Source of the DNA: Octopus vulgaris
Taxonomy: Eukaryota
Direction: 5' to 3'
Length of the DNA: 64,000 bases
NCBI GenBank assembly: GCA_951406725.2
Contig: OX597833.1
Coordinates: forward strand, 52,452,001-52,516,000
Shown: positions 615 through 58,661 of the stretch, piece by piece
Position numbering within the stretch: the first letter of the stretch is position 1
Layout: each line of letters begins with the position of its first letter
The notes under the pieces: generated by a model
What the model was told of the DNA's origin: nothing
What the model saw: only the letters and a program-made list of their open reading frames with translations
The model's database searches: none
Made by a program: the position numbers and the translations under genes

Positions 615-689
615 TTGCCTCGATAACTGATGAGATGCTGGAGCAGATTTCCGCCCCGACATCCGAAACTCGGAGTCTTGTTATGGCAA
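615..689 (+). ncRNA. Type I hammerhead ribozyme motif (Penelope/retrozyme type), partly decayed
   Basis: CTGATGA 627-633; imperfect stem II GATG...CATC; GAAA 665-668; stem III ACTC-G-GAGT; GTC cleavage triplet ending 677; stem I ttgcc..gataa / ttgtt..ggcaa. Confidence 0.65.
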
Positions 690-1458: not shown

Positions 1459-2318
1459 TCAGATTTTGCCACAGGACCAGCAGTGTTGGGGATGAGATAA
1501 ATCGATTTCATCGCCCTCAGTTCTCACCTGGCACTTATTTTATAGACTGTCGCAAGGATGAAAGGCAAAGACGACCTCAGAGGAATTTGAACTTGGATCG
1601 TAAAGTCGGACGAAAAGTTACTAAGTATTTAACTAGGCGTGCTAACGACTTAGCCAGCTCACTGCTTTACGAAAAAAAAAGCATATGCTAATATATTGAT
1701 TTCAAACTTTGGTTCAAGGCTACTAACTTCAGGTGAGTGGGTAAGTCGCTTCCATCGACCCCAGTGCTCAACTGATACTTAATTTATTGACTCCGAACGG
1801 ATGAAAGATAACGTGTACCTCGGCGAGATTTGAACGCAGAACGTAACAGCGGACGAAATGCCGCTAAGCATTTTTCCCGGCGCGCTAAAGATTCCGCCTG
1901 CTCACCGCCTTAATAAACATTTCCACTATAGGCACACGGCCTGAAAAATTGGGGGAGTTGCGGATAGTCGATTACATCAACCCCAGTACACAACTGGTAC
2001 TTTAATTTATCAATCCCGACGGGATGAAAGGCAAAGTTCACCTCGGCGGAATTTGATCTCAGAACGTAACGACTGACGAAATACCTATTTCTTTACTACC
2101 CACAAGGGGCTAAACACAGAGGGGACAAACAAGGACAGGCAAACGGATTAAATCGATTATATCGACCCCAGTGGGTAACTGGCACTTATTTAATCGACCC
2201 CGAAAGGATGAAAGGTAAAGTCGACCTCGGCGGAATTTGAACTCAGAACGTAGCTGCAGACGAAATACCGCTAAGTATTTTGTCCGGCGCGGTAACGATT
2301 CTGCCAGCTTACTGCCTT
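1459..2318 (-). mobile_element. Cluster of family A tRNA-derived SINE copies
   Basis: Repeated reverse-complement matches to ggcggcgagctggcagaa...gagttcaaattccgccgaggtcgactttgcctttcatcctttcggggtcgat. Confidence 0.85.
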
Positions 2319-2565
2319 AATAATAATAATGTAAAAAGAAAAAAAAAAAACAAAAAAAAAAAACAAATATATTAGACACAAGCAAAGAATTTCCAAATGT
2401 TTCTTTTGAAATTTTTCCAATTAATCTAAAGTGTACTTTTAAATATAATCGAAATGAACTTCAACATTATTGCTTAATTACCATGTTTTAATGTTCGACA
2501 GATAAATTCTATACCCAGCCCTTGACAAGACACTTCCTTTCACGTTGTTCCAGTCTATGCAGCTG

Positions 2566-2628
2566 AGTCGACTTTTGAGTCGTACTTTTGAGTCGTACTT
2601 GTGAGTCGTACATGTGAGTCGTACTTGT
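2566..2628. repeat. 13-bp minisatellite (gagtcgtacttkt) x~5
   Basis: Direct tandem units visible, adjoining a decayed family C SINE tail. Confidence 0.8.
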
Positions 2629-2751
2629 ATTTCAATGGGACGGTTGTGACACATTCTGTGTCATGCGGAATCTCATTGAGAACTACATTAGGTGTACACA
2701 TGTCTGTGGAGTGTTCAGCCACTTTCATGTTAATTTCACGAACAGGTTAAC

Positions 2752-3228
2752 GCGGTGAGCTGGCACAAACATTAGCACGCCGGGTGAAATGCTTAGCAGT
2801 ATTTCGTCTGTCTTTACGTTCCGAGTTCAAATTCCGCCAAAGTCGACTTTGCCTTTCATCGTTTCGGGGTCGATAAATTAAGTACCGGCTACGCACTGGG
2901 ATCGATATAATCGACTTAATCCGTTTGTCTGTCCTTGTTTGCCCTCTCTGTGTTTAGCCCCTTGTGGTTAGTAAAGAAATAGGTATTTCGTCTGCCGCTA
3001 CGTTCTGAGTTCAAATTCTGCCGAGGTCGACTTTACCTTTCATCCTTTCGGGGTCGATAAATTAAGTACCGATTACGCACTGGGGTCGATATAATCGACT
3101 TAATCCGTTTGTCTGTCCTTGTTTGCCCTCTCTGTGTTTAGCCCCTTGTGGTTAGTAAAGAAATAGGTATTTCGTCTGCAGCTACGTTCTGAGTTCAAAT
3201 TCCACCAAGGTCGACTTTGCCTTTCATC
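2752..3228 (+). mobile_element. Family A SINE multimer (head + ~2.4 body units)
   Basis: One A-box head, then body repeated with junction aaagaaatag|gtatttcgtc. Confidence 0.9.
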
Positions 3229-3559
3229 AAACAAACAAACAAAAAATAATAATTTCTAATCTAAAGATAAAGATAATTTGGTGAGAGGAATTGGTCGATA
3301 ATAGTGATACCAGTATTTAACTGGTATCTATTTTATCGATACTAGAAGGATGACAGATTCCAAACTTTTGTTGTTCGCTTTTCCTTACCATAGGATACAA
3401 GATCACAATATTAAGGTAAGGATATGTAGTCACTTGAATAGATCAAATTCAACTCAAATTCATTCTATCAACAGACGGGAATGATGGAAGAGCAGACTCT
3501 CCCTTGGCAGGATTTGAATTACAAATTTGATATCTTTTTCTTACTGCACTGAATTAACT

Positions 3560-3921
3560 ATTTCTTTACTACCCACAAGGGGCTAAACACAGAGAGGACA
3601 AACAAGGACAGACACACGGATTAAGTCGATTACATCGACCTCAATGCGTAAAAGGTACTCTATTTATCGACCCCGGCAGACAATATACCTATTTCTTTAT
3701 TACCCACAAGGGGCTAAACACAGAGGGAACAAACAAGGACAGACATAGGTATTAAGTCGATTACATCGACCCCAGTTCGTAACTGGTACTTAATTTATCG
3801 ACCCCGAAAGGATGAAAGGCAAAGTCGACCTCGGCGGAATTTGAACTCAGAATGTAACGACAGACGAAATACCGCTAATCATTTCACCCGGCGTGCTAAC
3901 GTTTCTGCCAAGTCGCCGCCT
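3560..3921 (-). mobile_element. Family A SINE with partial second unit and target-site duplication
   Basis: TSD ttactgcact(ga/cc)attaact at 3541-3559 and 3922-3940. Confidence 0.9.
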
Positions 3922-4632
3922 TTACTGCACTCCATTAACTTTGAGTTTTTGGTTTAAGTGTGGCGCTTGAGTACAGAATAATCAAGACATTAATTAACAT
4001 AACCTTTCTTTCTTTGTTTGTTTCTTTCTTACCTTCTTTCTTTCCTTCTTTCTTTCTTTCTTTCTTTCTTTCTTTTATTTCTTACTCCCTCCTCTCGCAC
4101 CCACACCCTCCACGCTTTTATTCTCGCTTCTGGCATCACTAATTTCAATACCAGCCAGCATATGATGTTTGTTTGTTAGAAGGGAACATATTGCTGCAGC
4201 TTAGACGCTATTAATGCAAGCCTTTTTGACTTCTCACTTAGTGCACAGAGACATGCACTCACACAAGTGCAGGTGTATGTATGGATTTATCTGGTTGTAT
4301 AAGAGAGTACGAAACAGAATGAGTGTCCATCTGTTGAGGTTAGTAATTTCTACGTTGAAAATGCCTGGAGTCGCTTACAATGTGAACTAGTACGGAATAT
4401 AGCAATTATGTATTTCTTTTAGACAAATATTAAGCAAAATACATAAACTGAGATTTACTTGATGCCAGGAGAAGCAGCAAACATTGTAGAAAAAAAAATC
4501 TGCAAGAAATTTCCTTAATTTGTCAGAACACCAGCATATTATTTCTTGGTAATGCTTTAACTGAAGGTGGTGAATTGGTGGCTCAGTTAGCACAAGTGAA
4601 TCTCTTTGTGGTGATTAGGTGCAGCTCGATAA

Positions 4633-5231
4633 GGCGGCGAGCTGGCAGAAACGTTAGCACCCCGGGCGAAATGCTTAGCAGTATTTCGTCTGCCGCTACG
4701 TTCTGAGTTCAAATTCCGCCGAGGTCGACTTTGCCTTTCATCCTTTCGGGGTCGATAAATTAAGTACCAGTTACGCACTGGGGTCGATATAATCGACTTA
4801 ATCCGTTTGTCTGTCCTTGTTTGTCCCCTCTGCGTTTAGCCTCTTGTGGGTAGTAAAGAAATAGGTATTTCGTCCGTCGCTACGTTCTGAGTTCAAATTC
4901 CGCCGAGGACGACTTTGCCTTTCATCCTTTCGGGGTCGATTAAATAAGTACCAGTAACGCACTGGAAACGATATAATCGACTTAATCCGTTTGTCTGTCC
5001 TTGTTTGTCCCCTCTGTGTTTAGCCCCTTGTGGGTAGTAAAGAAATAGGTATTTCGCCCGTCGCTACGTTCTGAGCTCAAATTCCGCCGAGGACGACTTT
5101 GCCTTTCATCCTTTCGGAATCGATTAAATAAGTACCAGTCAAGCACTGGGGTCGTTGTAATCGACTTAATCCGTTTGTCTGTCCTTGTTTGTCCCCTCTA
5201 TGTTTAGCACCTTGTGGGTAATAAAGAAACA
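4633..5231 (+). mobile_element. Family A SINE trimer (184-bp period) with TSD
   Basis: Units start at 4681, 4865, 5049; TSD gattaggt(g/a)cagct at 4613-4626 and 5232-5245; B box gagttcaaattcc in the first two units. Confidence 0.92.
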
Positions 5232-10512: not shown

Positions 10513-11119
10513 ATATATTTATATATATATATGCACATATATACGACGAGCTTCTTCCAGTTTCCGCCAACCAATTGCACTCGCATGGCGTATTGGTCGG
10601 CTGGAGGCTATAGTAGAAGATATATGACCAAGTTTCCACGCAGTGGGACTGAATCTGGAACCATGTGATTTGGAAGCAAGCTTCTTACCACACAGCCACG
10701 CCTGCGCCTATCAATATATAAAGATTTTAAGAATGCAAAAATTCATATAAGATCTTCTTTGAATGAATCATAATTACATGTTTTTTGTTTCATTTTTGGT
10801 ACATCTACGAGGTATTTTATCTCATTTTTACAGTGACATGAAGTGCATAATATGCTTCTTAGACGAAGTTCGTTGCAAAACTGATCAATTAACCACAGTT
10901 ATTAAACTACTGAGTAAAATTACTTGATTTTGTTATCAGTCATCAAACTTTCAAATGCAACCAGAATATTTCTATCCCCAATACCATTGTGGTACCTTTA
11001 TGCAGCCTGACGAACTGAGTCTCTAAATGTAAAATTTTGAATATGGACTGAGCGCTCGTGAAAGAACTTACCCCACTGTCTTTTCTGCTCAATGAATGTC
11101 TCCCAATATGGTTGACATC

Positions 11120-11286
11120 AGCTGTGTGGTAAGTAGCTTGCTTACTAACCACATGGTTCCGAGTTCATTCCCACTGCGTGGCACCTTGGGCAAGTCTCTT
11201 CTGCTATAGCCTCGGGCCGACGAAAGCCTTGTTAGTAGATTTGGTAGACGGAAACTGAAAGAAGCCCGTCGTATCTATATACATAT

Positions 11287-30456: not shown

Positions 30457-30529
30457 GGCCGCGTGGCCTAATGGATAAGGCGCCTGACTTCGAATCAGAA
30501 GATTGCGAGTTCGAATCTCGTCGTGGTCG
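30457..30529 (+). tRNA. trnR-TCG: tRNA-Arg (anticodon TCG)
   Basis: 73-nt cloverleaf: acceptor GGCCGCG/CGTGGTC, D arm TGGCCTAATGGATAAGGC, anticodon loop CTTCGAA, T arm GCGAG-TTCGAAT-CTCGT; one C:A mismatch at 27:43. Confidence 0.9.
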
Positions 30530-33816: not shown

Positions 33817-34506
<690 letters not shown>

Positions 34507-34511
34507 ATTTA

Positions 34512-34583
<72 letters not shown>

Positions 34584-34680
34584 GTTTTTTTCCTTCTTTC
34601 TTCGAATTTTCTTCCGTTTCTCGCCGAGTGTTTTCCATACACGAGAAACGGAAGAAAATTTGAAGAAAAAAGAAAAGAAC

Positions 34681-34713
<33 letters not shown>

Positions 34714-34714
<1 letters not shown>

Positions 34715-34886
34715 CCCTTATGCAGTACCAGGCAGTGGCTCTCATGGTTTCTGATCTTAACTGATTGGAAGTGTTATCACGTACATTGTTTTGTCTTGGT
34801 ATAAAAGATGGGCTACAGCAAATATTCTGCTCAATACCACAGATTTGCTTGTCAGTTGTTTGACCTTAACCACTTGAGTATGTCCC

Positions 34887-34889
<3 letters not shown>
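34714..34889 (+). mobile_element. 5' part of the same (TAA)n-flanked element
   Basis: tgcagtaccaggcagtggctctcatgg... matches 39590-39757. Confidence 0.85.
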
Positions 34890-40137: not shown

Positions 40138-40208
<71 letters not shown>

Positions 40209-40209
<1 letters not shown>

Positions 40210-41303
40210 GAAGCTTCATTCTATCATAAAGGAAAGCAAAAACTTTGCTATTGATCTCGTGCAGGATACCCAAACTGAACAACCCGAGGGAAGTACGGCA
40301 ACTATTGTTGCAAAGAAGGTGAAAATGATGGCAATGAAAAAAGCGCACGAGCAATTGGCTGATAGGTGGGAGGAGAAACCTCTGCACGGCAAATATGTGA
40401 CCCGCAGCAAACAAGCTGATGTTGACCAGAAGCAAACCCATCAGTGGCTACGGAGCTCAGGGCTAAAAGCAGAGAGCGAAGGTTTCATCCTGGCTGCTCA
40501 AGATCAAAGCCTATTAACCCGGAACTACCAGGCCAATGTGATGAAAAATGGAGCAGACCCAAAATGCCGATTCTGCAACGACATGATTGAAACAGTGGAC
40601 CACCTAATCTCTGGGTGTAAAGTCTTAGCACCAGTGGAGTATAAATTAAGACATGACAGAGTTGGCCAATATCTACACTGGCTAATAAGTCGGCATTACA
40701 ATATCAAAACTGCCGACAAGTGGTATAATCACCACCCTGAGGCTGTAACTGAAGGAGAAAATGTAACCATTCTGTGGGACTTTCCAGTACATACAGACCG
40801 AACCATCAAGGCCAATAAACCAGATATTGTTGTGAAAGACCAAAACAATAAAGTTTGCTTATTGATCGACATGAGCATCCCCTGTGATCATAATATCTCA
40901 GCGAAAGAGTTTGACAAGCTCAGAAAATATAAAGACCTACTCATTGAAATTGAGAAAATGTGGCATCTCAAGGCGGTTACAATACCAGTGATCGTAGGAG
41001 CACTAGGAATGATCAAGAAGGGAACCGAAAATTATATGAGAATGATCCCTGGCTTACCATCCCTGCAAGAAGTGCAAAAGATTGTCTTAACTGGTACATC
41101 ACACGTATTGAGAAGAGCATTGTCGATGTGAGAACTGTTGCTGCTCATGTATTTTAATTTAACTTAAAAAAAAAAAAAAAAAAATGAACGAATTATTGAG
41201 TTTGATTTAATGGCCAACCAATGTATACTATGAGTTTCTTTGCCCTAGGAGTCGGGAAGACACTCGGCAAGAAATGGAAGCAAATTTGAAAGAAGAAAAA
41301 AAA
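40209..41303 (+). mobile_element. 5'-truncated Dong/R4-clade non-LTR retrotransposon
   Basis: (AAT)n on both sides; uninterrupted C-terminal ORF followed by a 3' UTR. Confidence 0.9.
40259..41131 (+). CDS. C-terminal part of R4/Dong ORF: CCHC zinc knuckle + restriction-like endonuclease (RT domain missing)
   Basis: CRFC..ETVDHLISGC, RHD, KPDIVV, LLIDMSIP, KLRKYKDL, PVIVGALG motifs in an open 290-aa frame; truncated, so probably not translated. Confidence 0.85.
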   Translation: MQDTQTEQPEGSTATIVAKKVKMMAMKKAHEQLADRWEEKPLHGKYVTRSKQADVDQKQTHQWLRSSGLKAESEGFILAAQDQSLLTRNYQANVMKNGADPKCRFCNDMIETVDHLISGCKVLAPVEYKLRHDRVGQYLHWLISRHYNIKTADKWYNHHPEAVTEGENVTILWDFPVHTDRTIKANKPDIVVKDQNNKVCLLIDMSIPCDHNISAKEFDKLRKYKDLLIEIEKMWHLKAVTIPVIVGALGMIKKGTENYMRMIPGLPSLQEVQKIVLTGTSHVLRRALSM

Positions 41304-46132: not shown

Positions 46133-46536
46133 GGCGCAGGAGTGGCTGTGTGGTAAGTAGCTTGCTAACCAACCACATAGTTCCGGGTTCAGTCCCACTG
46201 CGTGGCACCTTGGGCAAGTGTCTTCTGCTATAGCCCCGGGCCGACCAATGCCTTGTGAGTGGATTTGGTAGTCGGAAACTGAAAGAAGCCTGTCGTATAT
46301 ATGTATATATATATATAAGTGTGTGTGTATATGTTTGTGTGTCTGTGTTTGTCCCCCTAGCATTGTTTGACAACCGATGCTGTTGTGTTTACGTCCCCGT
46401 CACTTAGCGGTTTGGCAAAAGAGACCGATAGAATAAGTACTGGGCTTACAAAAGAATAAGTCCCGGGGTCGATTTGCTCGACTAAAGGCGGTGCTCCGGC
46501 ATGGCCGCAGTCAAATGACTGAAACAAGTAAAAGAA
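46133..46536 (+). mobile_element. Family B SINE, full length
   Basis: ggcgcaggagtggctgtgtggtaag...gactgaaacaagtaaaaga. Confidence 0.92.
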
Positions 46537-46756
46537 TGTAAAATGTTACGAAACAAACTTAGTTGTTTCTTACAATAAATAAATCGAAAGCAAATTTTTT
46601 TTTTTCCTGGACCCTAAATATATTTCTGTATATACCCAATTTACTATTTTGCTTCCATGGACTCCCAAAAAATCTCATATCGACCTCTTGGGGGGATCAT
46701 ATGGATTCCGGTTGAGAATCACTGGTTTCGATGCTACCGTATTTTCTGGCATACAA

Positions 46757-47030
46757 CTCTTTTTACTCTTTACTCTTTTACTCTTTTACTTGTTTCAGTC
46801 ATTTGACTGTGGCCACGCTGGAGCACCGCCTTTAGTCGAGCAAATTGACCCCAGGACTTATTCCTTGTAAGCCTAGTACCCTATTCTATCGGTCTCTTTT
46901 GCCGAACCGCTAAGTGACAGGGACGTAAACACACCAGCATCGGTTGTCAAGCGATGTTGGTACGACAAACACAAACACACAAGCATATGCACAAACATAC
47001 ACTCACACACACACACACATATATATATAT

Positions 47031-48293: not shown

Positions 48294-49130
48294 TTCATTA
48301 TTGACTGATAAACTGTTATTAGCGCTAGTGATGACTGCCTCATTATGAAACCCACTGAACGACATGTCCGCGAGCACCGGATGCAATATTTTTGGTTGTG
48401 ACGAACGATTGCCGCAGTCGCCATCTCAATGAGGGGTCCTAATCGTTTGGTAATGAACATTACGGGGTCATTGCGTAACGGTTGACATAGTTACGCATGT
48501 AGGTTATTTCGTTTGATTTACGTCTCCACTGCACTTATTAAGAGAGGTTGACGTGATAGGCACACAGTATGGTTGAATGGTTAAGAAGTTCGTGTCGCAA
48601 CCACGAAATCTCGGGTTCGATACCACTACATGGCATCACTTTCTGCAGCGTAGATGTGTTGGAAGTACTATGCTTCCCAACCACATGGTTTCTGGTTCAG
48701 TCCCACTGTGCGGGACCTTGGGTGAGTGTCTTCCAATATAACACTGGGTCGACCGAAACCAAAAATTAGTTATACTTGTGCAATACACAAAATATTTTAA
48801 GAATTTTTCAATAGAATTCCTACTATTTAAATATAAGAATATAATAGGATTTTTAAAAACATCTTTTTCTACTTTAGGCAAGATTCGTCATGTGAAATCG
48901 TGTTGAAACAGATTTTAATGTATCTTGGGAAAGATATTAGGCCAAGGCGACGGAAGGACACAGAGGAAATCGAAATGATCAATTGAATGACCGAAAGATT
49001 AATCAAACAATCGTGATATACATACATACTTATATATATATATATATATATAAATTTCAGGGTAGTAAAATATTATTTAGAATTTTTTACCACAGTGGCC
49101 TAGCGTGTAGAAAAACTAGTCAATAGACTA

Positions 49131-49555
49131 TATATACAGTGTACATTTAAGCTCATAAGAGTTGGGCATAATCGGACGTCTAAACTGCTAGAAAGAGTAG
49201 TTAAACTCCAAACCACAATTAGGGGTCATTTCGAAAGGGAATGAAAAATAAAAACATTTACCATCTATTTCCTGAACCATGGTTTCAAGCTATAACTTGT
49301 AAGCACGAGATATGTTCTGTATTGCCGCGGACTTATATGTTAATCTTTGGCTTTCCTGCTGATGAGAGCTTCGCCTAGCAAATTACTTTATTTGCTGAAG
49401 ATAGCTTGAAACCATGGTCCAGGAAATAGATGGGTAAATGTTTTTATTTTTAATTCCCTTTCGAAATTACCCCTAATTGGGATTTGGATTTTAACTACTC
49501 CTTCTAGCAGTTTAGATGTCCGATTATGGCCATCTCTTATGTGTTTAAATGTACA

Positions 49556-49564
<9 letters not shown>
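49131..49564. repeat. Imperfect ~163-bp inverted repeat (Penelope-like fold-back) in (TA)n
   Basis: 49131-49293 pairs with 49401-49564. Confidence 0.85.
49352..49426 (+). ncRNA. Canonical type I hammerhead ribozyme motif
   Basis: tttcctg CTGATGA gagct..agcaaat-tacttt-atttgct..agctt GAA ACCATGGT C caggaaa; 7-bp stem I, extended stem II, palindromic stem III, GUC site at 49419. Confidence 0.85.
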
Positions 49565-49611
<47 letters not shown>

Positions 49612-50149: not shown

Positions 50150-50290
50150 TTATTTTTATGTTCCTTTCTGTCGAAGAGCGTAGGCTCGAAACGTAAAAGA
50201 CTTTCTCACTCCCCGAGCGTTAAACTCATACATTTGTTTGTTGTTTACAACACACCCGTCTTGGTCTTTTGTCTTTTGTAAATTCTCACT
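50150..50290 (+). mobile_element. Penelope-like terminal fragment with HHR-like motif 50164-50199
   Basis: cttt CTGTCGA a gagc-gtag-gctc GAA ACGT A aaag. Confidence 0.65.
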
Positions 50291-57380: not shown

Positions 57381-58130
57381 TGACATATATACATATATTC
57401 CGTCTCCTTGTTGCTTGCTCACTGCCTAAGGCATCATTGATTTTTCACCTGTAACCTCATAGATGGCTGACAGTTCTGTTGCAGGTGTGCAAGGTTTGTA
57501 GCATAGATAACAAACAAAAGATGTTACTTACTGTGCACTCTCAGCCAGGTACCTCAACCAGGTACCTCAACACAACATGACGTCACTCTTCCATTGCTGT
57601 AGGACTTTCAGCAGATGGGATGACAGACACGCACGCGCACACACGCACACACACACACAAACATATATTTATGTACACATATGTATATATACGTATATTC
57701 ATATATACAGGTGTATATATATATATTCTTTTACTCTTTTACTTGTTTCAGTCATTTGAGTGCGGCCATACTGGAGCACTGCCGAACGAATCGACCCCAG
57801 GACCTATTCTTTGTAAGCCTAGTATATGTATATATTTGAGCACCCCTGTTTGTTTCCACCCCCACTCCAGACCGTCACCTGACAACCGATGCTGGTGTGT
57901 TTTTGTCCCCGTAACTTAGCGTCTAGGCAAAAGAGACCGATAGAATATGTACTCGGCTTGCAAAACAATATGTCTTGGGTCGATTTGCTCGACTAAATGC
58001 GGTGCTCCAGCATGCCCACAGTCAAATGACTGAAACAAGTAAAAGAATATATATATATACCGGAGTAAACACATAAATGTGAAACAAGGTTGAAAAAAGA
58101 GTACTCAAATACCAGTGGTAGAGTAATATG

Positions 58131-58288
58131 CTTTATTTAAAGCAGCAGAAAATTCAACAAAATCTGTTACTCTGAGTTTCTCGTTGCCGTTCATCAGACA
58201 GTTTTTGCTAGAAAAAACTGTCTGATGAACGGCAACGAGAAACTCAGAGTAACAGATTTTGTTGAATTTTCTGCTGCTTTAAATAAAG
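58131..58288. repeat. Perfect 76-bp inverted repeat with 6-nt loop, hammerhead motif in each arm
   Basis: 58131-58206 is the exact reverse complement of 58213-58288; ctgt CTGATGA a-cg-gcaa-cg-a GAA ACTC-A-GAGT A acag. Confidence 0.9.
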
Positions 58289-58661
58289 TATATATATATA
58301 TTTGTATCACCTTGTATTGGCTTTTGGAATTAATTCGAAGGGATATAACATGCAGTGAGAGAGATTTTCTCATTCATTGGAGCCAAGATGTCTGTGATCT
58401 TGTATGCTAATGATGATGACGATGATGATGATTATGATGATGATGGTGATGTTGATGATGATGATGATAAGTATGACGATGGTGGTGACGATGATAAGGA
58501 TGATGCTGCTTGTGCTGGTGCTGGTGTTGGTATGGGGGTTAGATTTTGGTGGCGGCGGCGGCGGTGCTCGTGACGGAGGTGGTTTACAACGTTGGCAGAT
58601 ATATCAGTCGAATTAGTTGTTATTAACAGTAGATAGTCGCAACGGAATTAGAAGATTCGAC

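Follow-up and report, generated by a model that had tools for sequence, protein, structure and literature searches.

A hammerhead-bearing fold-back in a (TA)n tract, probably the dead 3' end of a Penelope-like retroelement

Positions 49137-49558 of the window, i.e., the whole 64,000-nt stretch of DNA that was analysed, are best explained as the dead 3' end of a Penelope-like retroelement (PLE) with (TA)n as its target; this end consists of a direct 5'-truncated copy (49293-49558) and a head-to-head inverted copy (49137-49293), and the probability of this reading is put at roughly 0.84. The masking of the ribozyme that is predicted for this arrangement would be a by-product of the insertion rather than a regulatory state, since the element would have been laid down as a direct plus an inverted copy. 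The assignment to PLEs is drawn from the anatomy of the locus and stays putative. As read, the locus is one more decayed retroelement end in repeat-rich animal DNA (GC 31-43%, long microsatellites), and it matters little. It may serve as a clean record of the PLE insertion mechanism, with a perfect self-primed palindrome minus 109 nt suggested, and its 7-bp stem I and 8-nt palindrome make a convenient construct for the study of trans cleavage by solo PLE hammerheads.

The hammerhead motif occupies 49352-49426 of the forward strand and was delineated from the sequence, motif scans and folding. It displays the CUGANGA and GAAA core, helices I-III and the NUH site of a type I hammerhead. Stem I (49352-49358/49420-49426) comprises Watson-Crick pairs at 7/7 positions, the 5' half of the core, CTGATGA, lies at 49359-49365, and the 3' half, GAAA, at 49408-49411. 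The base of stem II (49366-49370/49403-49407) opens with G-U at 10.1-11.1, which is followed by four Watson-Crick pairs, while the whole of stem II with its extension (49366-49407) includes a further 2 bp and an 8-bp hairpin. The helix III palindrome ACCATGGT spans 49411-49418, and cleavage is predicted 3' of C17 at 49419. In RNA letters, the palindromic ACCAUGGU is part of the same motif, with its CUGAUGA/GAAA core. The canonical core, perfect 7-bp stem I, long stem II and palindrome described in the sequence-only reading are all present in the sequence and the scans. Its description of the motif as the best-preserved hammerhead is borne out as well, as 49352-49426 scores 16 in a relaxed hammerhead scan and heads the five window matches with a score of at least 9 (the others score 13, 11, 10 and 10); a score of 16 was reached by 0/40 block-wise doublet shuffles, the shuffle maximum being 12. 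The call is based on pattern and pairing scans, the Rfam model being unmatched: an Rfam search of the window returned the hammerhead family neither at the gathering score nor at E<=10. A generic core pattern allowing 5-35 nt in stem II gave 17 window matches, a number equalled in 4/100 shuffles, and overlooked 49352-49426, whose stem II measures 42 nt.

The folding predictions point to a hammerhead that would work in pairs. Taken alone, the 91-nt motif does not exceed its shuffles in stability (z -0.38), helix III has 2 bp in the monomer and 8 bp in the predicted dimer, and its formation in the monomer costs +2.2 kcal/mol. When two copies are co-folded, the double hammerhead is the lowest-energy form (-51.2 vs 2 x -21.3 kcal/mol); 49352-49426 is accordingly predicted to be of the short-helix-III type and to need a dimer. 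Dimeric PLE hammerheads have reportedly been treated by Lunse et al. in 2017. The hammerheads of PLEs are characterised by dimer dependence and low in vitro activity in the relevant passages of PMC4209133. Like these dimeric motifs and the amphibian type (PMC7229834, in the part consulted), the present one has type I topology, a 15.1-16.1 palindrome and a dimer as the predicted lowest-energy form; unlike them, it carries G10.1-U11.1 in place of the usual G-C and is a single copy that lacks a tandem partner in cis. A further PLE hammerhead cleaves only with the protein of its element, is dispensable for in vitro insertion and leaves no read ends at its site, as excerpts of PMC11167929 have it. 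The earlier description of the ribozyme as active-looking therefore holds with a reservation, given the short helix III, the predicted need for a dimer, and related motifs that cleave poorly in vitro or need a protein.

The upstream arm is an inverted repeat of the distal half of the element. A comparison of 49129-49293 with 49401-49566 gives 92.2% identity over 166 nt (E 1e-64); trimmed of their flanking TA, the arms comprise 49137-49293 (157 bases, reverse strand) and 49401-49558. As the sequence-only reading had stated, the former is antisense to the 3' half of the ribozyme, being a 92% inverted copy of 49401-49558, i.e., of the hammerhead 3' half and the element 3' end. The stretch to which it is antisense includes GAAA, C17, stem III and the downstream strand of stem I; position 17 of the arm itself is U, and the repeat 3' end shared by both arms extends 132 nt beyond the hammerhead motif. 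The direct copy (49293-49558, forward strand) is a 5'-truncated copy of the repeat 3' end of about 265 nt and contains the complete hammerhead. At the head-to-head junction lies an imperfect palindrome (49283-49302, centred between 49292 and 49293) with 8/10 pairs. The whole region folds as a single long hairpin of -261 kcal/mol (z -28), which was matched by 0/100 shuffles. The insertion is flanked by the two parts of its microsatellite target, (TA)4 at 49129-49136 and (TA)25 at 49559-49608. The arm ends coincide on the same base, with no 30-40 bp tail and with a target-site duplication that is unreadable inside (TA)n, and the end sequences are symmetric (TA-CAGTG...CACTG-TA).

Over 158 alignment columns, one indel and 12 substitutions, of which 5 are transitions and 7 transversions, separate the two arms. 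Compared with the contigs of relatives, paired subfamily variants are common to both arms (49173/49522, 49184/49511, 49186/49509 and 49217/49478), whereas other changes are private to the left arm (49151, 49153, 49162, 49166, 49178 and 49227) or to the right arm (49452, 49480, 49482 and the indel at 49432). These shared paired variants and private changes are what one template followed by independent neutral decay would leave. The divergence is 0.040 per arm, which, assuming an octopus host, as SINE and microsatellite features of the window would suggest, corresponds to an arm age of about 11 My (5.6-20) at the rate implied by the accessible part of PMC13282606 (JC 0.065 = 18 My).

The geometry can be accounted for by a short series of steps. 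Target-primed reverse transcription into (TA)n would halt near 49293, and self-priming or a template switch would then yield a mirror copy. A slip or deletion of 109 nt between 11-nt near-repeats (49292 and 49401), during synthesis or later, would remove the mirrored 5' half of the ribozyme and leave one complete hammerhead instead of two. For the first 11-mer of the direct copy (49292), the top internal match falls at the very base where the inverted arm begins (49401), with 9/11 identical, a level reached by 14 of 29,403 site pairs for a length of 11 nt that was picked post hoc. The simplest reading of the junction is that of a perfect palindrome, the left arm of which has lost 109 nt. A second fold-back, 9 kb away, may represent the unbroken form of such a palindrome: it has zero spacer, its centre lies between 58209 and 58210, and 78/80 of its pairs are intact over 58126-58293 (58060-58293 with a one-sided extension of about 70 nt), with (TA)n at both ends and two head-to-head hammerhead motifs at 58218-58255 (forward) and 58201-58164 (reverse). 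In tandem transcripts of the parent, the hammerhead would act as a dimer, held together by its palindrome, and cleave 3' of 49419. Read-through RNA of the solo locus would form a dead 150-bp hairpin, likelier a substrate of RNA silencing or A-to-I editing than a self-cleaving RNA.

Parts of this arrangement have counterparts among published PLE insertions. An inverted 5'-truncated copy beside the 5' end is typical of them according to the sections of PMC8557442 at hand, and those of PMC3846280 describe head-to-head inverted pLTRs with short junction palindromes, which are read as self-priming, with small RNAs arising from most copies. An excerpt of PMC4209133 notes hammerheads that occur in pairs, one per strand, at distances of 100-700 bp. 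The link to inverted pLTR insertions of Penelope-like elements, drawn earlier from the sequence alone, is supported by the head-to-head shorter copy and the junction palindrome, both of which fit the published cases. The locus resembles complex insertions of EN+ PLEs (PMC3846280 and PMC8557442, in part) in its head-to-head shorter 5' inverted copy with variable junctions, its junction palindrome, its microsatellite target, and its terminal-repeat hammerhead in sense orientation near the 3' end. It differs from them in that it has neither an ORF nor a tandem copy and in that both arms end on the same base, i.e., without the 30-40 bp tail on one end, which is optional in PLE insertions (PMC3846280, same portion).

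Compared by eye, the repeat also resembles the Hydra clade, whose PLEs, one of them from Octopus bimaculoides, combine (TA)n targets, a sense hammerhead near the 3' end and an AC..GT palindrome in the portions available of Files S1, S2 and S7 of PMC8557442. The present repeat shares with this clade, including Hydra-1_Obim, the (TA)n target and a canonical sense 3' hammerhead with an AC..GT palindromic helix III; the helix III palindrome of Hydra-1_oBim reads ACCA-A-TGGT, and File S2 lists hammerheads at comparable positions relative to the 3' end. In the same table, a G-U or mismatched stem II base also occurs, and for one entry the attachment of an inverted 5'-truncated copy is recorded. By eye, however, the repeat shows no match to the 3' end of the Hydra-1_Obim consensus as published, and stem II is far longer here (42 nt between the core halves). 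Three short element motifs were not found in the PMC8557442 supplement. According to the main text of that source, as excerpted, Naiad and Neptune elements likewise favour microsatellites, and the repeat is assigned to no clade. Looking for the parent element itself was unsuccessful within the window: neither the element nor the window contains an RT or GIY-YIG ORF tied to the repeat, the six-frame translation of the element is closed, and Pfam matched 1/103 window ORFs, an unrelated non-LTR fragment, with 0 matches for the other 102. Additionally, 43 metagenome loci with both core halves were considered and discarded as chance, since BLASTN at E<=0.1 linked 0/43 of them to the element; viral contigs gave 0 matches, and a bacterial promoter scan, irrelevant here, returned 4 sites vs 6.1 expected.

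The family is represented in sequencing runs of relatives. Contigs or reads from 4 of 24 runs were aligned to the region, among them the contigs of two related animals, X1 (2539 aligned) and X3 (2079 aligned), at 80% likeness. In X1, the summed depth, which does not equal copy number and also drops with divergence, is 227,127-352,022 on the best arm bins vs 1,536-4,761 over 49288-49359, and it declines 5'-ward. At 49286-49287, 82 contigs in X1 and 44 in X3 leave the left arm into stem-II-like sequence rather than into the spacer. The family thus appears to be very abundant, most copies continuing past the arm into stem II, and it may already stand in a curated octopus repeat library. Among the 21 joints listed (21 of 65), which tolerate 80% likeness and short sides (19-45 letters), may stem from other repeats and cannot include the window's own junction, nine are head-to-head fold-backs at nine different positions. 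Each of these nine occurs in 1-2 contigs per run and two occur in both X1 and X3; none of the nine listed has a direct copy starting at or before the core, and one has unknown letters in between. The other 12 listed joints comprise 5 of the left-flank repeat, 2 internal deletions, 2 continuations into stem II and 3 of ambiguous orientation. Single joints are weak evidence, and it is the scatter of the junction positions that would carry weight.

The relatives' contigs also suggest constraint on the hammerhead across family members. At position 17, about 55% of their summed contig depth reads A, against C at 49419 and U in the left arm. At position 3 of stem II, which is G-C here, relatives mostly have A (49368), with T opposite in loose ends, as read from separate tables rather than the same molecules. 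In the RNA run X23, 239 reads fall on the region, 232 of them partial and 159 less than 90% alike; their ends do not pile up, and the depth over the 5' half, about 4 or fewer reads per strand, is too thin to inform on cleavage. As a separate observation, 134 X23 RNA reads (49405-49457) share one different upstream sequence at 49405, and they are read as an expressed, truncated family copy that lacks the 5' half of the core in the source organism of that run (organism C).

The depth profile also bears on an alternative in which the repeat is a non-autonomous PLE derivative, i.e., a unit of about 270 nt, akin to a retrozyme or SINE, that is mobilised in trans, the fold-back still being an insertion by-product. 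Such a unit would suit the very high abundance and the lack of an ORF linked to the repeat, and solo retrozyme monomers derived from pLTRs have been described (10.64898/2026.07.22.740005, in the portion seen). Furthermore, a natural 5' boundary may lie at 49290-49291, the start of two listed joints and of three pieces from X3, but 49291 is also where the reference ceases to match longer copies. The depth decays 5'-ward and forms no plateau over a fixed unit, and a tandem copy is absent from the window, which makes this alternative unlikely. A non-LTR retrozyme would consist of tandem units, each with a hammerhead, and a second direct copy is absent from the window. The region shares with non-LTR retrozymes, as treated in parts of PMC7229834 and 10.64898/2026.07.22.740005, a non-coding, AT-rich sequence of a few hundred bases, a type I hammerhead and a likely PLE origin, and differs from them in that 49137-49558 is inverted, not tandem, with circular RNA not in evidence.

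Regarding the masking itself, equilibrium predictions agree with the sequence-only reading that a long transcript hides its ribozyme: the pairing probability of stems I/II is 0.00 for transcripts that start at or upstream of 49282, and thus include the arm, and 0.66-0.94 for starts from 49290 onwards. The energy needed to impose the hammerhead fold is 35 kcal/mol with the arm and 3.5 kcal/mol without it, likewise at equilibrium, and the arm is predicted to capture the 3' half of the ribozyme during transcription, as that half emerges. The further proposal of a built-in conformational off state would imply a selected switch, in which the arm would hide or expose the hammerhead depending on where transcription starts, on processing or on A-to-I editing. 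In its favour, the predicted masking is all-or-none, hinging on about 12 nt of the arm, and the hammerhead is intact although the arms have diverged by 7.6%; against the latter, a core of about 15 nt would remain intact with about even chance at about 4% divergence per arm. A switch would be expected to have two folds of comparable energy that are kept by covariation, whereas the two states here are separated by about 35 kcal/mol and the 12 arm substitutions include 0/12 compensatory changes (2/12 leave G-U). The energy gap in these models acts as a sink, not a toggle. Owing to this gap, the lack of compensatory changes and the junctions scattered across the family, a switch is unsupported, and its off state as a function is at odds with the predicted co-transcriptional masking and uncompensated decay; the geometry, moreover, follows from known PLE insertion. 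Very little chance is therefore given to a selected switch.

In its most specific form, the copy would be kept as a natural antisense-gated hammerhead: starts upstream of about 49286 would lock the RNA in the long hairpin, while starts at 49290-49351, or A-to-I editing, would expose a ribozyme that cleaves once paired in trans, via the ACCAUGGU palindrome, with transcripts of the many dispersed family copies. This is considered highly doubtful. An arm selected as a gate would make this a natural antisense-controlled ribozyme in an animal, of which the literature searched yielded no example; judged from titles and passages, that literature contained nothing on this repeat family or on a PLE arm as a ribozyme regulator.

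The symmetric CAGTG...CACTG ends flanked by TA, which we take to resemble Tc1 ends, would also fit the insertion, at TA, of a Tc1/mariner-type MITE whose terminal inverted repeats measure 157 bp. However, a TIR of fixed length with a shared interior is contradicted by the depth profile, the loose ends and the scattered joints: the best arm bins exceed the spacer in coverage about 50-200-fold, and beyond the arm most contigs enter stem II rather than the spacer. Moreover, a complete hammerhead overlaps the supposed TIR, and the target is a TA microsatellite, as in PLEs, so a MITE is very improbable. A fold-back artefact of assembly or sequencing is hardly credible, for although none of the 24 pieces listed (of 4996, from four runs) extends 31 letters to both sides of the junction, nor does any of those listed from run X15 (RNA by guess only) span it, the arms differ at 13/158 columns with private changes, where an artefact would duplicate one arm exactly.

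The insertion preferred here, a decayed PLE end, stands among several other repeats. Its left flank (49054-49135) is itself the end of a highly abundant repeat and adjoins TA; the summed depth, which again differs from copy number, peaks at 89,415 in X3. The first ~30 bases of this repeat are tied to 49291-49315-like sequence by three listed joints, and the two repeats may be related or often adjacent. Further hammerhead-like motifs with a palindromic helix III occur in different repeat families at 622-682 (forward) and 7251-7207 (reverse), the second with one core mismatch. By eye, a minimal, degenerate hammerhead-like motif with an altered core, a stem II of 4 bp and GAAACGTA can be made out at 50166-50205, where the relaxed scan gave no hit. 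The motif of the second fold-back resembles, by eye, the Hydra-2_aMil row in the part of PMC8557442 File S2 consulted. Other inverted repeat pairs, 80-95% identical and a few hundred bases apart, are found at 34332-34888, 46361-46956, 1961-3925 and 10544-11271, and they could give long double-stranded RNA if transcribed. At 40208-41128 (forward), directly after a (TAA)n tract, lies the C-terminal part of a non-LTR retroelement (307 aa; zf-RVT at E 5e-4), which we take to be R4/Dong-like; it has 229 relatives at E<=1e-60, the named ones being from shrimp and Clytia. Besides TA-repeat noise, Rfam identified a tRNA gene at 30457-30529 (forward; 63.8 bits) with the anticodon TCG (Arg).
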